Origin: Escherichia phage Murica
Length of the DNA: 64,000 nt
Sequence record: NC_041871.1
Direction: 5' to 3' (one strand)
Part shown: in pieces, positions 33,531 through 64,000 of the stretch
How the letters are laid out: every line of letters begins with the position of its first letter
How positions within the stretch are numbered: the first letter of the stretch is position 1
The notes under the pieces: generated by a model
Databases searched by the model: none
What the model saw: only the letters and a program-made list of their open reading frames with translations
Told to the model about the DNA's origin: nothing
Position numbers and translations under genes: made by a program

Positions 33531-34448
33531 ATGATGAAGTATTTTAATGCAGATGACCTAGTAGACAAAGGTCTTGTAACCAGTCGGTATTATCCAGATC
33601 TTGGATTAAAGATCTATAAATATGCCAGAAAAGTATTCTACAACGATCTGTGGCATTTGTCTCCGCGTTTACTGGAGTGCCGAGGTATTGTTGTTGGCAA
33701 TGAGGGGAATGTTGTGGCATGGCCTTTCACAAAAGTATTCAACTTAGGAGAAAACTCCACCAACCTACCGGACAGTAAACTTGTTACTGCGGTAGAGAAA
33801 AAGAACGGATTCCTCGGTGTGGTATCATCTCATAAAGGTGAACTATTGTTCTCAACAACCGGGTCTCTTGATTCCCCATATTGTAACCTCGCAAAAGAAA
33901 CCATCAGGGAGCAATGTGGTAATTTAGATCTTATCAAGAAGGTTATGGGCAATGAAAACATGACATTCATGTTTGAAATTTGCCACCCTTCAGATCCGCA
34001 TATTGTTCAGGAAGATCATGGCGCATATTTGATAGGTTGCAGATATAATGATTCTGGAATAATGCTACCAGAAGCAGCTTTAGATGGGATTGCCAAATAC
34101 CTTGGTGCAAAACGTCCTCACACTGTGCGTGAAATTCCGTTCAGCTATGCAAAAGAATTAGCTGCAGAAACAAGAGGTGAAGGGTATATGATTCGTAAGC
34201 CTTACTACCCTTATGATCTGCAGCTGAAGATCAAGTCTCCATACTATCTGGCACGGAAGGCAGTAATGAGGGGTAAAGCTTGGAAGATTTGGGATGATGA
34301 TATCTTTAAACGTGTTGACGAAGAGTTTTACGGTATGGTAAAATTTATTCGTAGCAACTATACAGAAGATGTGTGGAATTGCTTATTAGAGCAGGAGCGT
34401 CGTGAGATACTGGACTACTATTTCCACAACGAGGACTATATGCAATGA
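33531..34448 (+). CDS. RNA ligase, T4 RnlA (Rnl1)-like
   Basis: N-terminal pattern LLECRGIVV...WPFTKVFNLGEN recalled as matching T4 RNA ligase 1; KxNG nucleotidyl-transferase motif (EKKNGF); start chosen at ATGATG after GAGGAA (track start 33513). Confidence 0.65.
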   Translation: MMKYFNADDLVDKGLVTSRYYPDLGLKIYKYARKVFYNDLWHLSPRLLECRGIVVGNEGNVVAWPFTKVFNLGENSTNLPDSKLVTAVEKKNGFLGVVSSHKGELLFSTTGSLDSPYCNLAKETIREQCGNLDLIKKVMGNENMTFMFEICHPSDPHIVQEDHGAYLIGCRYNDSGIMLPEAALDGIAKYLGAKRPHTVREIPFSYAKELAAETRGEGYMIRKPYYPYDLQLKIKSPYYLARKAVMRGKAWKIWDDDIFKRVDEEFYGMVKFIRSNYTEDVWNCLLEQERREILDYYFHNEDYMQ

Positions 34449-55731: not shown

Positions 55732-56520
55732 ATGGGTCGAGCTAAAGAAACAAAACGCATGCGTGATGAAGCTAGAGAGGCTCGCAAATCTGATCGCCTG
55801 CGTAAGGCTGCTGAGAAATTTGCTGACGAAAGAGAGCACACCGCTCCAGCTCTCCGACCAATGAATAAGAAGCAGCAAAAGTATCTTGATTATCTAGGGT
55901 CACGTAAGATTATTATTGTAAACGGTGTGTTTGGATCCGGTAAGACATTCATGGCATCTGCATATGCAGGTGATCTTCTGCGTAAGAACGAGATTGATAA
56001 GATTATTGTTGCACGTCCTTACGTTCAGACAGGAAAGACTTCAGGATTTAAACCTGGAAATGCAATGCAGAAACTGTGGCCCTATCTTCGAAGCATGATG
56101 GACACGATTTGTCGTCGTGTTGGCAAAGGTGCTTTTGCCGCAATGCTGGGAGACGGTCAGAACAGCCGTATCGAGATTTGTGAAGTTGAAAGCATTCGTG
56201 GTCGTAGTTTCGATGAGCGATGCTTTGTCCTGATTGACGAGGCACAGCAAACTAACCCTGAAGAAATGTTGTCAATTATCACAAGGATCTCTGATCAAGC
56301 CACCCTTGTAATTATGGGTGATAATAGCCAACGTGACATCCCTGGTAAATCTGGCCTTGCATGGGTGACGGATTTCTTTACTCGTCATCCAGATCCTGAG
56401 GTTGGAATGATCAGCTTTGATAGTCCAGACGATGTCGTTCGTTCCGGGTTGGGTCGTCAGATCGCACTCAATCTTATTGATGATCGTGCAAATCATATTT
56501 GGACCCCTGTTTCCGAGTAA
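55732..56520 (+). CDS. phoH: PhoH-like ATPase
   Basis: Walker A GVFGSGKTF, Walker B LIDEAQ; AAGGAG RBS. Confidence 0.8.
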   Translation: MGRAKETKRMRDEAREARKSDRLRKAAEKFADEREHTAPALRPMNKKQQKYLDYLGSRKIIIVNGVFGSGKTFMASAYAGDLLRKNEIDKIIVARPYVQTGKTSGFKPGNAMQKLWPYLRSMMDTICRRVGKGAFAAMLGDGQNSRIEICEVESIRGRSFDERCFVLIDEAQQTNPEEMLSIITRISDQATLVIMGDNSQRDIPGKSGLAWVTDFFTRHPDPEVGMISFDSPDDVVRSGLGRQIALNLIDDRANHIWTPVSE

Positions 56521-56525
56521 TACAG

Positions 56526-56546
56526 AAGGGTGGTTATTCCACCCTT
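56526..56546 (+). terminator. hairpin after phoH (no U-tract; weak terminator or RNA processing site)
   Basis: 8-bp stem AAGGGTGG/CCACCCTT with 5-nt loop. Confidence 0.3.
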
Positions 56547-56564
56547 AAATATCTAAAACAGTTG

Positions 56565-56593
56565 TTGACAAATAGGTAAGCTTTAGATATTAT
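56565..56593 (+). promoter_or_regulatory. promoter TTGACA-17-TATTAT
   Basis: consensus -35 and near-consensus -10 upstream of the 56622 gene. Confidence 0.55.
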
Positions 56594-56621
56594 TATCGGA
56601 CAAAACAGAGAGAAGGACAGT

Positions 56622-56933
56622 ATGGCTACAATACAAGAGAAACTGAATAAAATATACTGCCTGTTTGTCTATAACGGCGAGACAATTTTGGCAAATAAGG
56701 GATCCAAGAATGTGTGGACCAAGGACAGCGGTGGTAATATAATTAACTTAGCGTTGCTACGTGAGCGCCGACACAGATTCTTTATCGAGTCTAGAATTAT
56801 TGAAAGCAGCACTTGCTACAGAACAGGCGATAAAGTAATTGTTGACAATGATACGTGGTATGTGGTAGACTGGCAATCATTGAGTTGTGATGCTTCTGAC
56901 AATCGTAAGTATTCCATAGTGATTGCTAAATAA
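56622..56933 (+). CDS. hypothetical protein
   Basis: 103-aa ORF with RBS; contains an internal promoter-like element at 56842-56871. Confidence 0.4.
   Translation: MATIQEKLNKIYCLFVYNGETILANKGSKNVWTKDSGGNIINLALLRERRHRFFIESRIIESSTCYRTGDKVIVDNDTWYVVDWQSLSCDASDNRKYSIVIAK
56842..56871 (+). promoter_or_regulatory. promoter-like TTGACA-18-TGTGG-TAGACT inside the 3' end of the preceding ORF
   Basis: same TTGACA..TGTGG architecture as at 33473 and 38800; about 120 bp upstream of the ClpP-like gene. Confidence 0.35.
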
Positions 56934-56993
56934 AGGTAAATGTGAATCAGGTTTAAATAAATAGCTTTCAACTTCCAATATTAAGGATTTCTC

Positions 56994-58043
56994 ATGAATT
57001 TAACACCTCGCAGAACCATGGTACACGGCATGAAAGAAAAACAGAACGGTTTCGAACCTATGAGTAATAAAATGTTTGGTATGCCGGGCGGTATCATGGA
57101 AACATACAGCTACCCAACACCTGTTGTTGACCACGTTCTTTATATCGACGATTTGGAAGACTTACAAGATCATATGTCTCGCCTGCAGACGATCCGTATG
57201 GCTCAGCCTGAAGAAAGCATTCGAGTGATCATTAACAGCCCTGGTGGTTGCGTGCACATTGCGATGGCTTATCTGCAGGCATTCCGCGAGTCTCAGGCAA
57301 GCGTTGTTGCACATGCTGAAGGAATGTGCTGCTCTGCGGGAACAATCTTATGGCTGGGTTGCAAAGAACGCACTGTGGCTCCGGACACAGAGTTTATGTT
57401 CCACTACTATCAAGGTGGCACTTATGGTAACGGTGTGAACATGAATACTCAGGTCAGCTACTGGAAAAAACGTTTTGAACGCCTGATTGAAAAATACTAC
57501 GGTGGGGTGCTGACAGAAGATGAGATCGCATCCATCACAGCTGGTGGCGAAGTGTGGTTGGACGGAGAAGAGCTGGCAGCACGCACTGGAGCTATTATTC
57601 TGGATGAAGGCAACATACAACGCATCCAGAACGGACAAAAACCGAAAAAGCTTCTGGCAAAAGGTGATGAAGAAGGCGTGTTAGGTGAAGCAGGTCTCCC
57701 GGAGATTCACCAGTGCACATCTTTAGATGAGTTAGTTCATGCTGTTGAATCTGCAAAAGCGGGTGGTTCGAAAGGTGATGTTCACACTGTGTTCCTGAAT
57801 CTGCAGATGGAAAGTGGCGAGACCGTCAGAATTGCCCTGGGTGAGATTACTTCAGAAGATCTGCAGAGATTCTCTGTCGTTGAACTTCAGGATATTCTGT
57901 CTCAATTGAAGACTACTCTGAACGGCGGTGAAGAGGTTAAGGTGAAAGATAAGACTCGCAAGCGTCTGGTGGACAATATTATTAAAACAGCAAAAGAGCT
58001 CAATGAAAAAATCCTGGGTGCAGGAATTGTCGAAGAAGCTTAA
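56994..58043 (+). CDS. ClpP-family serine protease-like protein with C-terminal extension
   Basis: IINSPGG, GMCCSAG (Ser) and MFH (His) motifs in ClpP order within the first 180 aa; about 170 aa of extra charged C-terminal sequence. Confidence 0.6.
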   Translation: MNLTPRRTMVHGMKEKQNGFEPMSNKMFGMPGGIMETYSYPTPVVDHVLYIDDLEDLQDHMSRLQTIRMAQPEESIRVIINSPGGCVHIAMAYLQAFRESQASVVAHAEGMCCSAGTILWLGCKERTVAPDTEFMFHYYQGGTYGNGVNMNTQVSYWKKRFERLIEKYYGGVLTEDEIASITAGGEVWLDGEELAARTGAIILDEGNIQRIQNGQKPKKLLAKGDEEGVLGEAGLPEIHQCTSLDELVHAVESAKAGGSKGDVHTVFLNLQMESGETVRIALGEITSEDLQRFSVVELQDILSQLKTTLNGGEEVKVKDKTRKRLVDNIIKTAKELNEKILGAGIVEEA

Positions 58044-58057
58044 ACATTAATTCTAAA

Positions 58058-58079
58058 GCCCTCTTCGGAGGGCTTTTAT
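58058..58079 (+). terminator. rho-independent terminator
   Basis: AGCCCTC-TTCG-GAGGGCT followed by TTTAT. Confidence 0.6.
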
Positions 58080-58094
58080 GATCTGGAGATTTGC

Positions 58095-58628
58095 ATGACT
58101 TGTGCTAGAAAACCTGATGAACAACGTAACGCCTACGATGAGTATGTGACACCGGAGTGGTGTGCAGAAGGGCTGTATGACCTTATTCAGTTCCCAGAAG
58201 ACTGGACCTACTTAGAGCCTTGCAGGAATAGTGCCTCAGGTGTGTTCTACTCCCGTATGCCGTTAGGATCTGCATGGGGAGAAATACAAGAAGGTGTTGA
58301 CTATCTGAATACAGAATACAACCATGTTGACTGTATTATCACCAACCCACCATACAGCCTGGCTCGTGAGTTTGTAGACAAGGCGTTGAAAGATGCTGAC
58401 GTAGTTATTATGCTTTTGCGTCTTAATTTTCTGGAAAGCAAAGCCAGATTTGAATGGTGGCTTGATAATGCACCTACTACTGTGATCACAATATCTAAGC
58501 GTCCATCATTTCAATCAAACGGCAGAACTGACGGGCAAGCATATGCATATTTTGTGTGGGATAAGAAAAACCGTTTAGACTTGCCGCCGTTTATGTGGTT
58601 GGCACCCCCAGAGGTAGACCTGAAATGA
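58095..58628 (+). CDS. small N6-adenine methyltransferase-like protein (NPPY motif)
   Basis: 177 aa with TNPPY motif IV. Confidence 0.5.
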   Translation: MTCARKPDEQRNAYDEYVTPEWCAEGLYDLIQFPEDWTYLEPCRNSASGVFYSRMPLGSAWGEIQEGVDYLNTEYNHVDCIITNPPYSLAREFVDKALKDADVVIMLLRLNFLESKARFEWWLDNAPTTVITISKRPSFQSNGRTDGQAYAYFVWDKKNRLDLPPFMWLAPPEVDLK

Positions 58629-58909
58629 AAATGAGTGCTAAGGACAAATTACACCATCTAGCGCTAAAACGCCCTGTAACGCTCCCTGACGAACTTAACT
58701 CCATTTATGATGCGATTGTAGGGGAGATACAAAATAAAGCGTTAGCAGGCTTTCTGGGGTGCGGATTTTCGATAAATCTACCCTCGCATCTCTCAGATTA
58801 CTTCCCGCACATTGTTGGAGATTTAAGGGCAGGAGGTCTGCAGGTAGATGTTGTTGGCATCTCCCCAGAGAAAAATAATACGGTTGCCTACTTGACAGTA
58901 ACCTGGTAG
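58625..58909 (+). CDS. hypothetical protein
   Basis: ATG overlapping the preceding stop (ATGA), RBS GAGGTAGACC. Confidence 0.35.
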   Translation: MKMSAKDKLHHLALKRPVTLPDELNSIYDAIVGEIQNKALAGFLGCGFSINLPSHLSDYFPHIVGDLRAGGLQVDVVGISPEKNNTVAYLTVTW

Positions 58910-58945
58910 TTGTGTATTGTTGTTTTCAACAAGAGGGGGTCATTT

Positions 58946-59185
58946 ATGTACAAGTCATTTTCAATCTACTCAAGACAGGCGAAACACTACACAGAGATCC
59001 TGATCACTCAGAAAAAATCTGTGGAAGGTGAGTGGGAATATCACCATAAAATGTTGCGTCCAGACTGGGTTTTTGATAGACTTATTGCTATGATCCCTCT
59101 CGGAGAAGTATACCCTCTGACAGCCCATCGCGATGCTTGGGATTTAATTGATTACATAGATTCATTTAAGGAGCCTAGATTATGA
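58946..59185 (+). CDS. hypothetical protein
   Basis: ATG after AAGAGGGGG (track start 58910 is TTG). Confidence 0.35.
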   Translation: MYKSFSIYSRQAKHYTEILITQKKSVEGEWEYHHKMLRPDWVFDRLIAMIPLGEVYPLTAHRDAWDLIDYIDSFKEPRL

Positions 59186-59580
59186 AGATTGAGATTACTA
59201 AAGAAGGTAAGAAAGTGTCCGGCAACTATGCAACAGTAATTCGGGATTTAATGTTTGAAGCCACCAAGATCGGTACATCTAAAGTTGGTCAAACTGTTAG
59301 TGTGAAAAGTAATATCTCCACAGGAGAGAAGGTATTCATTGTGGTCAAAGGGCAGGATCCCGTGGAAGGAACAGTGGGCCGAGGTGGCTACCTGTGCATT
59401 TCTGAAGAGCCGCGTATGTTAGTGGCTGACGCTACTATGGGTGGGAAACGTGTGTGCGAGGCGGATGAGGTAATGATTATCCAACCTGTTGATCCAGATG
59501 ACCCAGCAACTTGGGTGGTAGGAAATGAAATCTTCTCTTTAGAAGAGTTATCCTTCCCAGCACCGCGCTCTGTTCAGTAA
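59182..59580 (+). CDS. hypothetical protein
   Basis: 132-aa ORF with AAGGAG RBS. Confidence 0.4.
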   Translation: MKIEITKEGKKVSGNYATVIRDLMFEATKIGTSKVGQTVSVKSNISTGEKVFIVVKGQDPVEGTVGRGGYLCISEEPRMLVADATMGGKRVCEADEVMIIQPVDPDDPATWVVGNEIFSLEELSFPAPRSVQ

Positions 59581-59617
59581 TAATTTATCTTACCAGGGAC
59601 GGTAGGTAGGAGGTAGC

Positions 59618-59851
59618 ATGAAAGTTAAATTTCTTACAGATTTAGGGTACCCTTCCTTGGTTGACTGTGTTGGTAAAATTGTGGAAGCAAAACGGCTATC
59701 TGCAAACGAGAATGTTGTCCTGGTTAAAGGGAAGGATTTACTAGCTGCAGGTGCAGAGTCTGGCAGGATCTCTCCTGATTATATGTATTACCTATCTTTA
59801 AGTAATCTGCCAGAGCGAGGCGGTAAAGGCCTTGAAGTTGTGGAGGAGTGA
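59618..59851 (+). CDS. small protein, member of a three-copy paralogous family (MKVK-L...DLLAAGA)
   Basis: 77 aa; shares N-terminal MKVKxL and central G(K/A)DL(I/L)AAGA motif with 63180..63404 and 63394..63648. Confidence 0.45.
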   Translation: MKVKFLTDLGYPSLVDCVGKIVEAKRLSANENVVLVKGKDLLAAGAESGRISPDYMYYLSLSNLPERGGKGLEVVEE

Positions 59852-59856
59852 CAGGT

Positions 59857-60381
59857 ATGCTTCTGATTAACTGGGAAGACCTCTATGGGGACAAAGACCC
59901 TGTTGCGTTTGTTGATCGTAGGTGGAGATACACTGAAGAACAACTGGCGGCAAAAAATTTAACTGCAAAACGCAGAAAGATCATCCAGTGCAAGTACAAA
60001 TACGCACAGTTTGCTGCAAAAGTGTCTCCACAAATCGAGAGCTTTGTGCTTAAATTGTATGACGAGTACCTCAAATTCAAATTGGATTTTGTGCAGGTGT
60101 ACCGTGCACAGGTACGACCAGATACCAACATATGTAGATGGAAGGTTGTTTGTGAAGGTAAAGATTTGCCGCTCAGCTTGACAATTGAGTGGCGTTATGG
60201 GTATCATGAGTGTGGTCTGTATGATATTTGGGATGTCATTGTAGATCCTGCTAAGCATCTGAACACAGAGGAGCTGGAATATATCAATAAGGTTATTCTC
60301 GATATGTTTTTCAGCTACACACATGAAAACTCTGAGAAAGAACGGGATAATTTTCTTGACACCCTCAGCGACCATTTGTAG
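59857..60381 (+). CDS. hypothetical protein
   Basis: ATG after GGAGGAG (track start GTG 59848). Confidence 0.4.
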   Translation: MLLINWEDLYGDKDPVAFVDRRWRYTEEQLAAKNLTAKRRKIIQCKYKYAQFAAKVSPQIESFVLKLYDEYLKFKLDFVQVYRAQVRPDTNICRWKVVCEGKDLPLSLTIEWRYGYHECGLYDIWDVIVDPAKHLNTEELEYINKVILDMFFSYTHENSEKERDNFLDTLSDHL

Positions 60382-60411
60382 TATACAATTTAACCTACAA
60401 AGGGAGGACCA

Positions 60412-60639
60412 ATGAGTATAAATGTTGTGCTAATAGGTTACCTGGTAATGTCCGTTATAACAGCGGTATTCTTGACAGGTGTATGCATCGTGTCCAGACG
60501 AAGGGTGAAGTTTGATGATTTTATCACCATCATCACTGCTGCACCTTTTTGGCCTGTTGTTATCTTCATCGTAATAATGTGCCTAGTTGATTACTACAAG
60601 AATATCAGGAAGGAGAGTAGGGATGGAGACCGCACCTAA
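60412..60639 (+). CDS. small membrane protein (two predicted TM helices)
   Basis: 75 aa with two hydrophobic stretches; RBS AGGGAGG. Confidence 0.4.
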   Translation: MSINVVLIGYLVMSVITAVFLTGVCIVSRRRVKFDDFITIITAAPFWPVVIFIVIMCLVDYYKNIRKESRDGDRT

Positions 60640-60858
60640 AACTATCTATACTGTTCTTAAAGAGATTGCGTTCTACGCAGATCTTAGCCAGGCACCTTTA
60701 TGGGAAAAGAGCATGTATTTAAAATGGTGCGTTAATTTAGGGAGACCTTCCAGTGTTTCAAGCCATGTTTATTGAGATGCTATCTGGGATATTGTTACTA
60801 GTAGCCATCTTAGGTGGTGCAGTTCTGATGTATAACTATCTTGAAAAAGGAGACAGCA

Positions 60859-61044
60859 ATGGTAAAAAATAAATCTTTAGAGCAGGCTGAAAACCTTCTC
60901 CACGAGCTGGTAAAGGAGTGGAAAGTTGAATACTCAGATTTTAATGCACGAGAGGGTGAAGATTATTGGCCTACGGAGCGCTCAGAGGGCGAATGGTATC
61001 AAGATTTTATAGAGTGGTTATATCAGACGTGCGATGAGGGGTGA
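60859..61044 (+). CDS. hypothetical small acidic protein
   Basis: ATG after AAAAGGAGACAGCA (track start TTG 60841). Confidence 0.35.
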   Translation: MVKNKSLEQAENLLHELVKEWKVEYSDFNAREGEDYWPTERSEGEWYQDFIEWLYQTCDEG

Positions 61045-61046
61045 CG

Positions 61047-61511
61047 ATGTTTGTTAAATATGTAAAAACGTGCCTCAACAGTCTTGGCAGAGAGCATTGG
61101 TACACCTTGCTTGAAAAAGGGGAAATTTTAACAAAATCTGGAAAGATAACTTTGATACCTCTTGATAGTAAAGGTAAAGACCCGTCACGACTTGTTATAG
61201 ATGATTACGTTACAGGTGTGACGTTCGAGGTCTCTGTGGAGAGGTTAATACGCAGAGCTGGCGGCCCTTATGACCGAAGAGAGTATGTTTTCGATTCCGT
61301 TACAGAGATGGGGGAGCATCCGTCTTTAATGTTCAGGATGGTAATCAGAGATATGAGGTCATCTATAGATAGGATCGTAAAGGACATTAAGGAACCTTTT
61401 AGAGTAAAAGTTAAGAAGTTTTTCGATTCTAAGATTAACATACTCGCCGTTGCACTAGGTGTAGTTCAACTTCTGTTAATTTTGCACTATTTTGAACTAC
61501 TATTTAAGTAG
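61047..61511 (+). CDS. hypothetical protein with C-terminal hydrophobic helix
   Basis: ATG just after the upstream stop; C-terminal ILAVALGVVQLLLIL. Confidence 0.4.
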   Translation: MFVKYVKTCLNSLGREHWYTLLEKGEILTKSGKITLIPLDSKGKDPSRLVIDDYVTGVTFEVSVERLIRRAGGPYDRREYVFDSVTEMGEHPSLMFRMVIRDMRSSIDRIVKDIKEPFRVKVKKFFDSKINILAVALGVVQLLLILHYFELLFK

Positions 61512-61573
61512 TAGTTGAGATATGGCACAAAGGATGTGCCATAGTGAAATAAACTAAGAAAGAGGTAGAGAGA

Positions 61574-61921
61574 ATGCCAAAGATTAAAACGTTATTACTG
61601 TGGGTAGCTGTTTTAGCTTTTATAGGGTACTGGACTTGGGAAACTGAATTAAAAGATATCGGATATACCAGTCTTGAGAGCAAGGCGTGCATTGGCATAA
61701 CCGATGCGTTCAGGCAAAATGCTATGGATCACGAATGTGTTGATGCAGATATAGATGAGAAACTGTCTAAGGACAAAGATTTTTACCATGGGCATGCTTT
61801 ACTTGATAGTGGTGACACTGTAGAGTTCTGGTCGTGGTTTCGTGAAGATGGAACAATAAAAACAGCAGTAAAGATCTCTAACAAAGAGTTAATGCTGTTG
61901 CAGCAAAAGGAGGCTCAATGA
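61574..61921 (+). CDS. hypothetical secreted/membrane-anchored protein
   Basis: N-terminal hydrophobic segment LLLWVAVLAFIGYW; RBS AAGAGG. Confidence 0.4.
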   Translation: MPKIKTLLLWVAVLAFIGYWTWETELKDIGYTSLESKACIGITDAFRQNAMDHECVDADIDEKLSKDKDFYHGHALLDSGDTVEFWSWFREDGTIKTAVKISNKELMLLQQKEAQ

Positions 61922-62205
61922 TCTGGATATCCTATGCTGATGGCACCATGCTGTATACTGCAGGTACCAGATATGAAGTTCAGGAGAACGATAAAAAATT
62001 TATCGTAAAAACATTTGACAAGGACGACAACCTTTTGCTAGAATTGACTTACAAAGTTGGAGAGGTATCCAATATCCAGTTGGATTGTGGTCATAAAGAT
62101 AATCCACTCAAAAAACCTGGAGTAGGTAAGGCTTCAGAAGAACGTCTGTCTCGTATTGCAGAAAGCGTTTCTCCCCAAAAATCTAAGAAGAGGACTAGAA
62201 AATGA
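61918..62205 (+). CDS. hypothetical protein
   Basis: 95-aa ORF, ATGA coupling, AAGGAGG RBS. Confidence 0.4.
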   Translation: MIWISYADGTMLYTAGTRYEVQENDKKFIVKTFDKDDNLLLELTYKVGEVSNIQLDCGHKDNPLKKPGVGKASEERLSRIAESVSPQKSKKRTRK

Positions 62206-62396
62206 AAAACTTACGTTTTAACACTTATTACTACAACACATTGAATGATTTGTATTATATTGTTCGAAGTAAAAGTCCTGAAACAGTCCTATTCTGCCGC
62301 GAACCTTTCAAAGGGGAGGAAGTAGAGTCTGAGATGAATGTTAGCCAGATCACCTCTTTGTTGCTCTCAGGCGCAATGGAAGAAGCAATATTCTAA
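62202..62396 (+). CDS. hypothetical small protein
   Basis: 64-aa ORF coupled to the upstream gene. Confidence 0.35.
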   Translation: MKNLRFNTYYYNTLNDLYYIVRSKSPETVLFCREPFKGEEVESEMNVSQITSLLLSGAMEEAIF

Positions 62397-62414
62397 ACCA
62401 GGCAGGAGGGTTTT

Positions 62415-62603
62415 ATGAAGCACTATTGCCTGTCTGGTAGAATGGGTGCAGATTGTGATTGGGTTTTCTTAAAACTTGTCAGCATTCGAGAGTTCATCCC
62501 AGAGGAAGAGCAAGAAAGCGAGCTGATGTCATGGATCAACCATTACGGTAACACTTTTCGGCATGTTAAGGTAGAAGAGTTGCCAAGCGAGGCTGAATTA
62601 TGA
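62415..62603 (+). CDS. hypothetical small protein
   Basis: 62-aa ORF with AGGAGGG RBS. Confidence 0.35.
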   Translation: MKHYCLSGRMGADCDWVFLKLVSIREFIPEEEQESELMSWINHYGNTFRHVKVEELPSEAEL

Positions 62604-62896
62604 AACTTTTTGAGTGGTTTAAAAAGTTTAAATATAAAGCTGTAGCCATCGTGCCGTGGTCCATTCAGTGGGTTGATGAAGGTGGTCTACCGATACCTGG
62701 TGACAAAGATACTGGGTACTGGATTATGATGGAGAACGGGTTTGGAAAGCGAAAGTATACGTGCACAAACTCTACTCGATCTGCACTTAATAGAGTGCCC
62801 GGTTACAAACTTATGGTTGTGTGGAAAATGTCAGGCGTGCCTCCAGCCAATGCTCAATTTCTTACTGACAATCCGACCACGGTAGAGGGAGATTGA
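62600..62896 (+). CDS. hypothetical protein
   Basis: 98-aa ORF, ATGA coupling. Confidence 0.35.
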   Translation: MKLFEWFKKFKYKAVAIVPWSIQWVDEGGLPIPGDKDTGYWIMMENGFGKRKYTCTNSTRSALNRVPGYKLMVVWKMSGVPPANAQFLTDNPTTVEGD

Positions 62897-62898
62897 TA

Positions 62899-63180
62899 AT
62901 GAAAAAGATTAACAGTAGTGAAGTAGAGTTTAAACTTGTCGGAAAAGGCACTTACTGGGAAGTTCGTCAAAAGGTATATTTGTTCGGTCTTATTCCCTAC
63001 TGGTCTAAATTCTACTGGGGAGCTAACGAGTTGGGAAGATATGCCACCAAATCAATGGCACTTATTGGTATAGCAGAGTACATTGCAGCCCGAGACAGGG
63101 TTGGAACCACTTATTACTACACTGCTGACGATATTCGTAACAGTGTTTACGTCCCACAACCACCTGATGGAGACCGTTGA
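62899..63180 (+). CDS. hypothetical protein
   Basis: ATG after GAGGGAG (track start TTG 62893). Confidence 0.35.
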   Translation: MKKINSSEVEFKLVGKGTYWEVRQKVYLFGLIPYWSKFYWGANELGRYATKSMALIGIAEYIAARDRVGTTYYYTADDIRNSVYVPQPPDGDR

Positions 63181-63404
63181 TGAAAGTTAAAGTTTTAGAT
63201 TCAAGCTTCTATATTGGTCAGGAGCCTTTAGTAGGAAAAGTGTTTACTGCTGTCCCTAACGAAGATTACCCTGACCTTTTAAAAATAAAAGGAGCAGATC
63301 TTATTGCCGCTGGTGCATCTCAGGAATGCTTTGACAGTCAGTGGACCTATAACTTTGCCCTAGGTGAGGATGTAGAGGTAGTGGAGGACGATCATGAAGG
63401 TTAA
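63180..63404 (+). CDS. small protein, paralogous family member (MKVKVL...DLIAAGA)
   Basis: ATG at 63180; motif shared with 59618..59851 and 63394..63648. Confidence 0.45.
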   Translation: MKVKVLDSSFYIGQEPLVGKVFTAVPNEDYPDLLKIKGADLIAAGASQECFDSQWTYNFALGEDVEVVEDDHEG

Positions 63405-63648
63405 AATTCTTGATTCTAACGTCTACTTGGGGCAATCCTTCCTGAATGGAAAGGTCGTTCCTGCGGTATACTTTGAAGGGTTGCCGTGGGATGATCCTGT
63501 GCGGCAACATCACAATTATGTAGGCCACAACGTGGTGTTTATCTTGGGATCAGACCTGATCACCGCTGGTGCACCTGAATATTATTTCGGGGAAGAGTCC
63601 TACTATGCCTTTGGGGTAGGGTCAGATGCAGATATTGTAGAGCTGTGA
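63394..63648 (+). CDS. small protein, paralogous family member (MKVKIL...DLITAGA)
   Basis: overlaps the previous paralogue by 11 nt; RBS GGAGGACG. Confidence 0.45.
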   Translation: MKVKILDSNVYLGQSFLNGKVVPAVYFEGLPWDDPVRQHHNYVGHNVVFILGSDLITAGAPEYYFGEESYYAFGVGSDADIVEL

Positions 63649-63687
63649 TGGGTAACCGTTGTGAAAAATAAACTGTTTAAAGTTACA

Positions 63688-64000
63688 ATGAAAATTCGCG
63701 GGGCTTGGAGCGTAAAGCAAGGGCGTATTCCAGAATTTGAGAAAGACTTCTACGTAGTCTCCACCTCTGAGGAGGCTGCATGCTGGCAGGCTGGCTATGC
63801 CTATGCAAGAACCTGGTACGAAGGATACCAGACTGGGGGCTATGACGGAGAAATTATCAGCAAGGGTGTAGAAGAAATTAATGTGTTGACAAGTGAAAAA
63901 GTTTTTGTTATAGTGCATCCAGATTCCAGAGTGAAGCATTACTGGAATGCCAGAACAAAAACTTGGACACCGTTTGCAGATTCTGCTACGCCACTTTTAA
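63688..64000 (+). CDS. hypothetical protein, 5' part (open to the window end)
   Basis: ATG at 63688 opens a frame with no stop to position 64000; weak RBS; contains a promoter-like element. Confidence 0.3.
   Translation, partial: MKIRGAWSVKQGRIPEFEKDFYVVSTSEEAACWQAGYAYARTWYEGYQTGGYDGEIISKGVEEINVLTSEKVFVIVHPDSRVKHYWNARTKTWTPFADSATPLL
63886..63914 (+). promoter_or_regulatory. promoter-like TTGACA-17-TATAGT
   Basis: consensus -35 and good -10, but inside the putative ORF at the window end. Confidence 0.35.

Follow-up and report, generated by a model that had tools for sequence, protein, structure and literature searches.

What do the small, mutually similar genes on the rightward arm of an rV5-like coliphage genome encode, and what might a phage do with several of them? 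The question arises from a 64,000-nucleotide stretch of Escherichia phage Murica (NC_041871.1), the window analysed here, which contains three such open reading frames (ORFs), termed A, B, and C. A sequence-only reading had described them as a three-member paralogous family, and had suggested that tandem and dispersed paralogues of this kind often mark diversifying host-interaction or anti-defence functions. The family is genuine and its members number five per genome; each is predicted to form a single small β-barrel; and the diversifying part of the suggestion does not survive analysis of selection and copy number.

A, B, and C are real protein-coding paralogous genes. All three ORFs lie exactly where they had been placed, on the plus strand, and the reported 11-nucleotide overlap between B and C is present. 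BLASTP relates A to B (E-value 1e-8; 32% identity across 77 residues), B to C (4e-16; 40% across 83 residues), and A to C (1e-4). A three-way alignment contains 19 invariant columns distributed along the full length, and the profile hidden Markov model (HMM) of PHROG 5009 matches each protein from end to end (A, 8.3e-36, residues 1-74 against profile positions 1-74; B, 1.7e-38; C, 3.6e-32). The similarity is thus significant over the whole of each protein, in pairwise alignment and profile search alike, and is not confined to the first residues. The proposed N-terminal sequence MKVK(F/V/I)L is exact in all three. The proposed central motif, G(K/A)DL(I/L)AAGA, describes A (GKDLLAAGA) and B (GADLIAAGA), but is slightly too strict for C (GSDLITAGA), which has S at position 2 and T in place of A. 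A is near neutral, whereas B, C, D, and E (the last two introduced below) are strongly acidic, with net charges of -7 to -10 (B about -10).

Bases 59000-64000 of the window are 99.9% identical to the rV5-like Escherichia phage slur16 (NC_028248), a Vequintavirus whose genome extends the view beyond the window's edge. An HMM of A, B, and C detects no fourth copy inside the window. However, an iterated profile search of every ORF in the slur16 genome finds five members, so that the count of three, correct for the window, is an artefact of where the window ends. The two additional genes, D and E, are adjacent to each other, and their products are recognized by hhalign against the family profile (D, 86% probability, E-value 5e-6; protein E, 89%, E-value 2e-6) and by BLASTP links to the first three (A/D, 3e-4; B/E, 6e-5; C/E, 1e-4). 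PHROG 5009 matches D weakly (1.2e-4) and does not match protein E, which instead has its own PHROG, 13661. An all-against-all BLASTP comparison of the genome turns up hardly any further paralogous pairs, most of them among tail fibres; the barrel family is therefore the largest small-protein family of the phage.

The two gene pairs have similar surroundings. B-C is followed by X1 and D-E by X2, and X1 and X2 are themselves paralogous (28-31% identity; E-values 2e-9 to 5e-9; common PHROG 7379). Because both come after two barrel genes, B-C-X1 and D-E-X2 represent an ancient duplication of one three-gene cassette (barrel, barrel, X). The most likely X1 start is the GTG at 63661, rather than the ATG at 63688 annotated in slur16, because the former is favoured by N-terminal alignment with X2 and with a distant homologue. 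Encoded between the two cassettes (slur16 L001 9453-9773) is a ribosome hibernation factor of the RaiA/HPF type (PF02482, E-value 4e-15), an unusual host-translation gene for a phage. Positions of the family members and associated features are collected in Table 1.

Table 1. Family members, cassette partners, and associated sequence features. Coordinates are those of the window unless a locus is named (L001, slur16; L049 to L051, sequence-read assemblies); dN/dS is the ratio of nonsynonymous to synonymous substitution rates.
Feature	Coordinates	Strand	dN/dS	Remarks
A	59618-59851	+	0.088	77 amino acids; rV5 gp122/ORF127 orthologue; solitary and most widely conserved copy
B	63180-63404	+	0.123	74 amino acids; rV5 gp135/ORF140 orthologue; first gene of B-C-X1 cassette
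C	63394-63648	+	0.154 overall; 0.24 in insertion loop (residues 27-50)	84 amino acids; rV5 gp136/ORF141 orthologue; 14-residue insertion in β2-β3 loop
X1	63661-64000, cut by window end; L001 8662-9060	+	0.055	132 amino acids from GTG start (most likely); rV5 gp137/ORF142; PHROG 7379
D	starts about 1.3 kb past window end, adjoins E		0.069	87 amino acids; rV5 gp142; PHROG 13920
E	outside window, adjoins D		0.081	110 amino acids; rV5 gp143; PHROG 13661
X2	L001 10872-11267		0.049	follows D-E; rV5 gp144; PHROG 7379
Neighbours (24 genes)			0.015-0.29	
Shine-Dalgarno sequence of A (AGGAGG)	59608-59613	+		six bases upstream of start
B/C overlap, ATGAAGGTTAA	63394-63404	+		11 nucleotides; TAA of B inside Val-Lys codons of the MKVK start of C
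C-terminal codons doubling as Shine-Dalgarno sequence	59836-59851; 63376-63404; L001 10860-10875			
CCGCTGGTGCA in B	63307-63317	+		AAGA-motif codons; upstream microhomology arm
CCGCTGGTGCA in C	63563-63573	+		downstream microhomology arm
B::C hybrid loci	L049 5001-5213; L050 5001-5213; L051 3239-3451			equivalent to window 63180-63648

Structure prediction indicates that each family member is one small (74-110 amino acids), mostly acidic SH3-like β-barrel domain. The AlphaFold model of B (predicted local distance difference test score, 88) has the attributes of SH3-like small barrels: five antiparallel strands; a closed barrel of about 60-70 residues; and superposability on SH3, KOW, or PsaE. 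In this model the G-x-D-L-I/L-x-x-G-A motif spans a short helix and runs into the long loop that follows strand 3. C, D, and E are set apart by insertions, all of which the alignments place in the β2-β3 loop, and this loop is the most variable part of C. Foldseek matches the B model to an 87-residue protein of the Vequintavirus Shigella phage CM1 (template-modelling score 0.81), a match that lends further support to the membership of the additional genes; the protein resembles D in length and may be its orthologue. Fold matches in the BFVD collection are all to uncharacterised proteins.

Libraries of characterised proteins add no functional assignment. Neither Pfam, NCBIfam, nor PADLOC yields an enzyme family or motif. 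A profile search of PDB sequences returns nothing below an E-value of 0.2 (the best hit, YgjH, is insignificant at 0.23); PADLOC-DB gives no match at E-values up to 1 for A, B, C, the homologue gp40 of coliphage mEp021, or two fusion relatives; and an NCBIfam scan of A, B, C, and relatives gives nothing meaningful. No paper was found on the function of the family, whose genes are labelled hypothetical proteins in more than 100 records.

The arrangement of the genes bears on how they are translated. Packing is tight, with start and stop codons overlapping or abutting; for example, the ATG of B overlaps the stop of the preceding gene (TGATG). The 11-nucleotide overlap of B and C arises because the codons of the conserved N-terminus, ATG AAG GTT AAA, contain a TAA one frame over, at which translation of the upstream gene stops. 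An identical arrangement, ATGAAAGCTAA, occurs in an unrelated metagenomic phage (L063), between a family gene with one domain and a family gene with two. (Fusion of B to C by programmed frameshifting was considered and rejected: there is no slippery site in the overlap, and the TAA within the MKVK codons accounts for it.) The ribosome-binding site of C is a GGAGGA inside the acidic C-terminal codons of B, which implies translational coupling of the two genes. Acidic C-terminal codons (GAGGAG or GGAGGA) double in this way as the next gene's Shine-Dalgarno sequence at the A, B, and E junctions. This layout suggests that the cassette genes are translated together, in fixed proportions.

Only one change in copy number was seen. 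In three independent Sequence Read Archive assemblies of rV5-like phages, B and C are replaced by a single 70-residue hybrid gene, which has the sequence of B up to the CCGCTGGTGCA repeat and that of C afterwards; recombination between the two microhomology arms deletes 256 nucleotides. All three retain A, X1, D, E, and X2. A different composite gene, of 72 residues, occupies bases 1-430 of two European Nucleotide Archive metagenome contigs (L052 and L053, the assembly of one having very low coverage), upstream of a normal C and X1. Its first 46 or so residues are of the mEp021 type and its last 26 of the B type, and the 189 nucleotides that precede it match FelixO1-like Salmonella phages at 81% identity. 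Two origins are conceivable: a natural mosaic of three sources, or a chimera created in assembly at a 32-nucleotide stretch matched by both parents.

How widely is the family distributed? Among 50,697 cultured phage genomes, tblastn matches are limited to Vequintavirus (116-118 records) and to seven temperate members of the mEp021 group of coliphages. In mEp021 itself the gene encodes gp40 (AXN54159), a 75-residue hypothetical protein situated between the Q antiterminator and holin genes and left uncharacterised in the paper describing the group's genomes (PMC11893012); an adjoining gene bears the annotation 'virion structural protein'. The mEp-type prophage version is present in 13 of 5426 complete E. 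coli genomes. It is a single gene that is shared, and no wider cassette is common to the mEp-type prophage neighbours and the window.

More distant relatives emerged when 1.84 billion representative proteins were searched exhaustively with a profile: there are 70 clusters at E-values below 1e-3, mostly metagenome proteins of 65-85 amino acids. (A narrower scan of viral contigs for relatives yielded only another Vequintavirinae-like contig.) Several contain the domain in tandem, head to tail in one chain: three domains in P0036, and two in P0061, P0097, and P0042. One distant relative is fused to DUF3310, a domain itself without assigned function; the C-terminal extensions of others have no Pfam match. 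Another, P0039, is encoded within a replication module, between a Prim-Pol primase gene and AAA_24/DUF669/DEAD helicase genes.

Two long, distantly Vequintavirinae-like contigs from IMG/VR (L045, 121 kb; L071, 136 kb) retain synteny over ClpP, the methyltransferase, small genes, and A, whose orthologues are 66% and 49% identical, respectively. Unrelated genes occupy the B/C place in both, which makes A the oldest and most stable copy. In L045 these are ORFs of 99 and 120 amino acids, followed by an X1 homologue. Further downstream in the same contig lie ORFs of 90 and 105 amino acids that begin MKIKLL and end VVEE; on this resemblance, they may be very divergent family members.

Are the copies diversifying, as the sequence-only reading supposed? 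Nei-Gojobori dN/dS values were obtained for 28 scorable genes of the region, taken from slur16 and as many as nine further loci, and were recalculated for the family and X1/X2 from eight Vequintavirus genomes, with hybrid-bearing ones excluded (Table 1). The family values, 0.07-0.15, fall within the range of the neighbouring genes; the family is under ordinary purifying selection. Copy number, surveyed among related phages, is almost fixed, with the rare B::C hybrids as the only departure: 114 of 116 GenBank records have two tblastn places matching B, taken as B and C. The claim of diversification therefore fails on both counts, although the claim of tandem and dispersed paralogues among small genes of the rightward arm is sound. 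Within the genus, the family has the behaviour of a conserved core set rather than that of an arsenal in rapid diversification. The two genes directly after A (59857-60381, 174 amino acids; 60412-60639, 75 amino acids) are stronger candidates for fast evolution in host interaction: they have the highest dN/dS of the region (0.29), and their products average only about 81% amino-acid identity across the genus. The 75-residue product, judged by eye, has a hydrophobic, membrane-like look.

The setting of these genes is that of the rV5-like phages generally: at least 80% of the 59000-64000 stretch is shared by 112 phage records, every one of which is rV5-like. The sign of the GC skew switches near position 34000, with genes to the left on the minus strand and those to the right on the plus strand. 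In slur16, the rightward arm encodes RNA ligase, Sir2, MazG, DNA ligase, exonucleases, and ThyX; ribonucleotide reductases of the aerobic and anaerobic types; PhoH, a ClpP-like protease, and a DNA methyltransferase; and also a polymerase exonuclease subunit. Then come about 45 small hypothetical genes, which continue to the end of the slur16 genome and include A, B, and C. The structural module is far away, on the opposite strand. Sites resembling σ70 promoters are over-represented in 56000-64000 (27 seen against 16.5 +/- 3.7 expected), an excess that is suggestive of early expression. Genes 82-163 of rV5 have been proposed to form one transcription unit, a proposal drawn from gene layout without timing data (PMC3606486), and the literature yielded no Vequintavirus time course. 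Eighteen GenBank records of the MG0656xx series, named 'Campylobacter phage' with C. jejuni as host, also contain the 59000-64000 stretch. Among the matches listed, these unannotated records are 99.6-99.8% identical to the E. coli Vequintavirus stretch, and their host labels look doubtful.

What, then, might the proteins do? The explanation preferred here, tentatively, is that they are non-enzymatic, multimeric binding modules that act on a host or phage factor. The barrels, which appear to lack catalytic features, would work as binding modules within multimers. In the translationally coupled pairs, B-C and D-E, two genes would correspond to the tandem forms that other phages make as one chain, and each pair would hence probably form a heterodimer. 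A core of residues that scarcely vary (Y11; G19-K20; G-x-D-L-I/L-x-x-G-A after strand 3; Y57; and the V-E C-terminus) may hold the fold together and provide a common contact surface. Target specificity would be set by the β2-β3 loop, which bears the C, D, and E insertions; in canonical SH3 domains, this loop borders the ligand groove. The target would most likely be a host protein, or else a component of the phage replication or nucleotide machinery, bound in the pre-late phase of infection. Since the family is conserved rather than fast-evolving, a role in a basic step of infection is more likely than one in a strain-specific arms race.

Three observations weigh against this explanation. The B::C hybrids imply that two separate chains are not strictly required. 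The gene contexts of distant members have no neighbour in common, although most of the contigs are short. And, with the B/C place taken by other genes in L045 and L071, only one of which keeps an X1 homologue, the link to X is not universal.

Other explanations have to be considered alongside it. That the proteins are diversifying inhibitors of host defence, or agents of host takeover, with copies evolving fast and varying in number to match host immunity, is possible, if unlikely. Small acidic proteins without enzymatic motifs, in five paralogous versions amid some 45 small genes of unassigned function, would fit such a role, as would the DUF3310 fusion of one distant relative and the location of the homologue in the variable Q-to-holin region of the mEp021-type phages; moreover, the rare B::C hybrids demonstrate that copy number is able to change. 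Yet dN/dS is not above that of the neighbours, the fastest-evolving genes nearby are others (the two after A, with omega of 0.29), and neither copy number nor position varies in nearly all of the 116 records. A is syntenic even in distant members of the subfamily, and the PADLOC library of defence proteins contains no match. Nothing specific favours the idea, and the results on selection and copy number contradict its claim of diversification. A narrower version, distinctly less probable, would make the proteins multivalent inhibitors, or 'sponges', of a class not described before: small acidic SH3-like barrels, as hetero-oligomers (B-C, D-E, and possibly with X1/X2), sequestering a host immune protein or signalling molecule through the invariant, Gly/Ala-rich G-x-D-L-I-x-A-G-A loop and the conserved Lys and Tyr residues. 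The five copies would then address different targets through their β2-β3 loops, and the mEp021-type copy would do the same job for a prophage.

A role internal to the phage is a serious rival, because of the replication-adjacent contexts and the core-gene behaviour. In this case the proteins would be accessory subunits of phage DNA replication or nucleotide metabolism, such as small adaptors or clamp-like partners, not directed at the host. Their strong purifying selection and acidic C-terminal tails are compatible with this, and they share an arm with ribonucleotide reductase, ThyX, ligase, exonuclease, and the polymerase exonuclease subunit; the position of P0039 inside a replication module points the same way. 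The mEp021-type gene, however, follows Q and is away from replication genes, no replication neighbour is conserved across contexts, and five copies would be unusual for a dedicated replisome subunit, so that this too is rather unlikely. SH3-like barrels are known in phage structural proteins, and the family might comprise small virion or assembly proteins, for example a decoration or chaperone barrel, but this is very improbable. The genes are distant from the structural module and on the opposite strand, and encode strongly acidic monomers without structural-protein homologues; nor does the text of the paper on rV5 proteomics (PMC3606486) name the family among the proteins of the virion. Two neighbours nevertheless lend the idea some colour: the gene beside the mEp021 homologue, annotated as structural, and the nearby gene for rV5 gp133 (window 61041-61511), which lies in the non-structural arm and whose product is among the predominant proteins in virion mass spectrometry (PMC3606486). 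(Annotations of this gene, of 154-156 amino acids, disagree: 'virion structural protein' in rV5, slur16, and FV3; 'HNH homing endonuclease' in bov10K2, rV5_ev146, and JEP1.) Finally, a chance or compositional similarity, or non-coding ORFs, can be dismissed. Short ORF length alone would suggest it, and it is refuted by significant full-length alignments, PHROG matches, purifying selection, ribosome-binding sites, and the 70 clusters of relatives.

Binding modules remain the preferred explanation, and the analysis offers a compact, testable set of targets for experiment. Five small genes of rV5-like phages are now grouped in one fold family, a cassette is defined, and a gene of temperate coliphages is linked to them. 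The fold, the five copies, and the cassette had not been described before, but features of this kind are ordinary in phages; in practical terms the value is that of a well-defined lead, not of a discovery. Roughly a third of a Vequintavirus genome consists of small genes without assigned function, and these phages have wide use in the biocontrol of E. coli O157 and in phage-therapy cocktails.

Comparison with known systems places the family in context. SH3 domains, the KOW domains of Spt5/NusG, PsaE, and ribosomal protein L24 have the small-barrel fold in common with the family, but at only 4-25% identity and without sequence similarity; no Pfam family at E-values up to 1 indicates homology to SH3 or KOW. 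The usual distal hairpin is replaced in the family by the short helix and long loop carrying the G-x-D-L-I-x-A-G-A motif. The likeness is one of fold only, not of demonstrated homology or common function. PHROG 5009, a function-less group with offshoots 13920 and 13661, records neither fold, literature, five copies per genome, nor the membership of D and E.

Closer counterparts are found in other phages. The gp40 protein of mEp021 and its mEpimmI relatives resemble A over their full length (43-46% identity), with the same motif and an acidic C-terminus, and also match PHROG 5009, as do distant members from metagenomes. They differ from the window family in being encoded by a single copy, in a temperate phage, between Q and holin. 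The tandem-domain proteins P0036, P0061, P0097, and P0042 parallel the adjacent B-C and D-E pairs, being built from the same domain, but their domains are fused, some have extra C-terminal regions, and their contigs are short and unclassified. Together, these cases reveal a domain that has been multiplied in tandem repeatedly in unrelated phages, in some as adjacent genes, and in others as two or three domains of one polypeptide.

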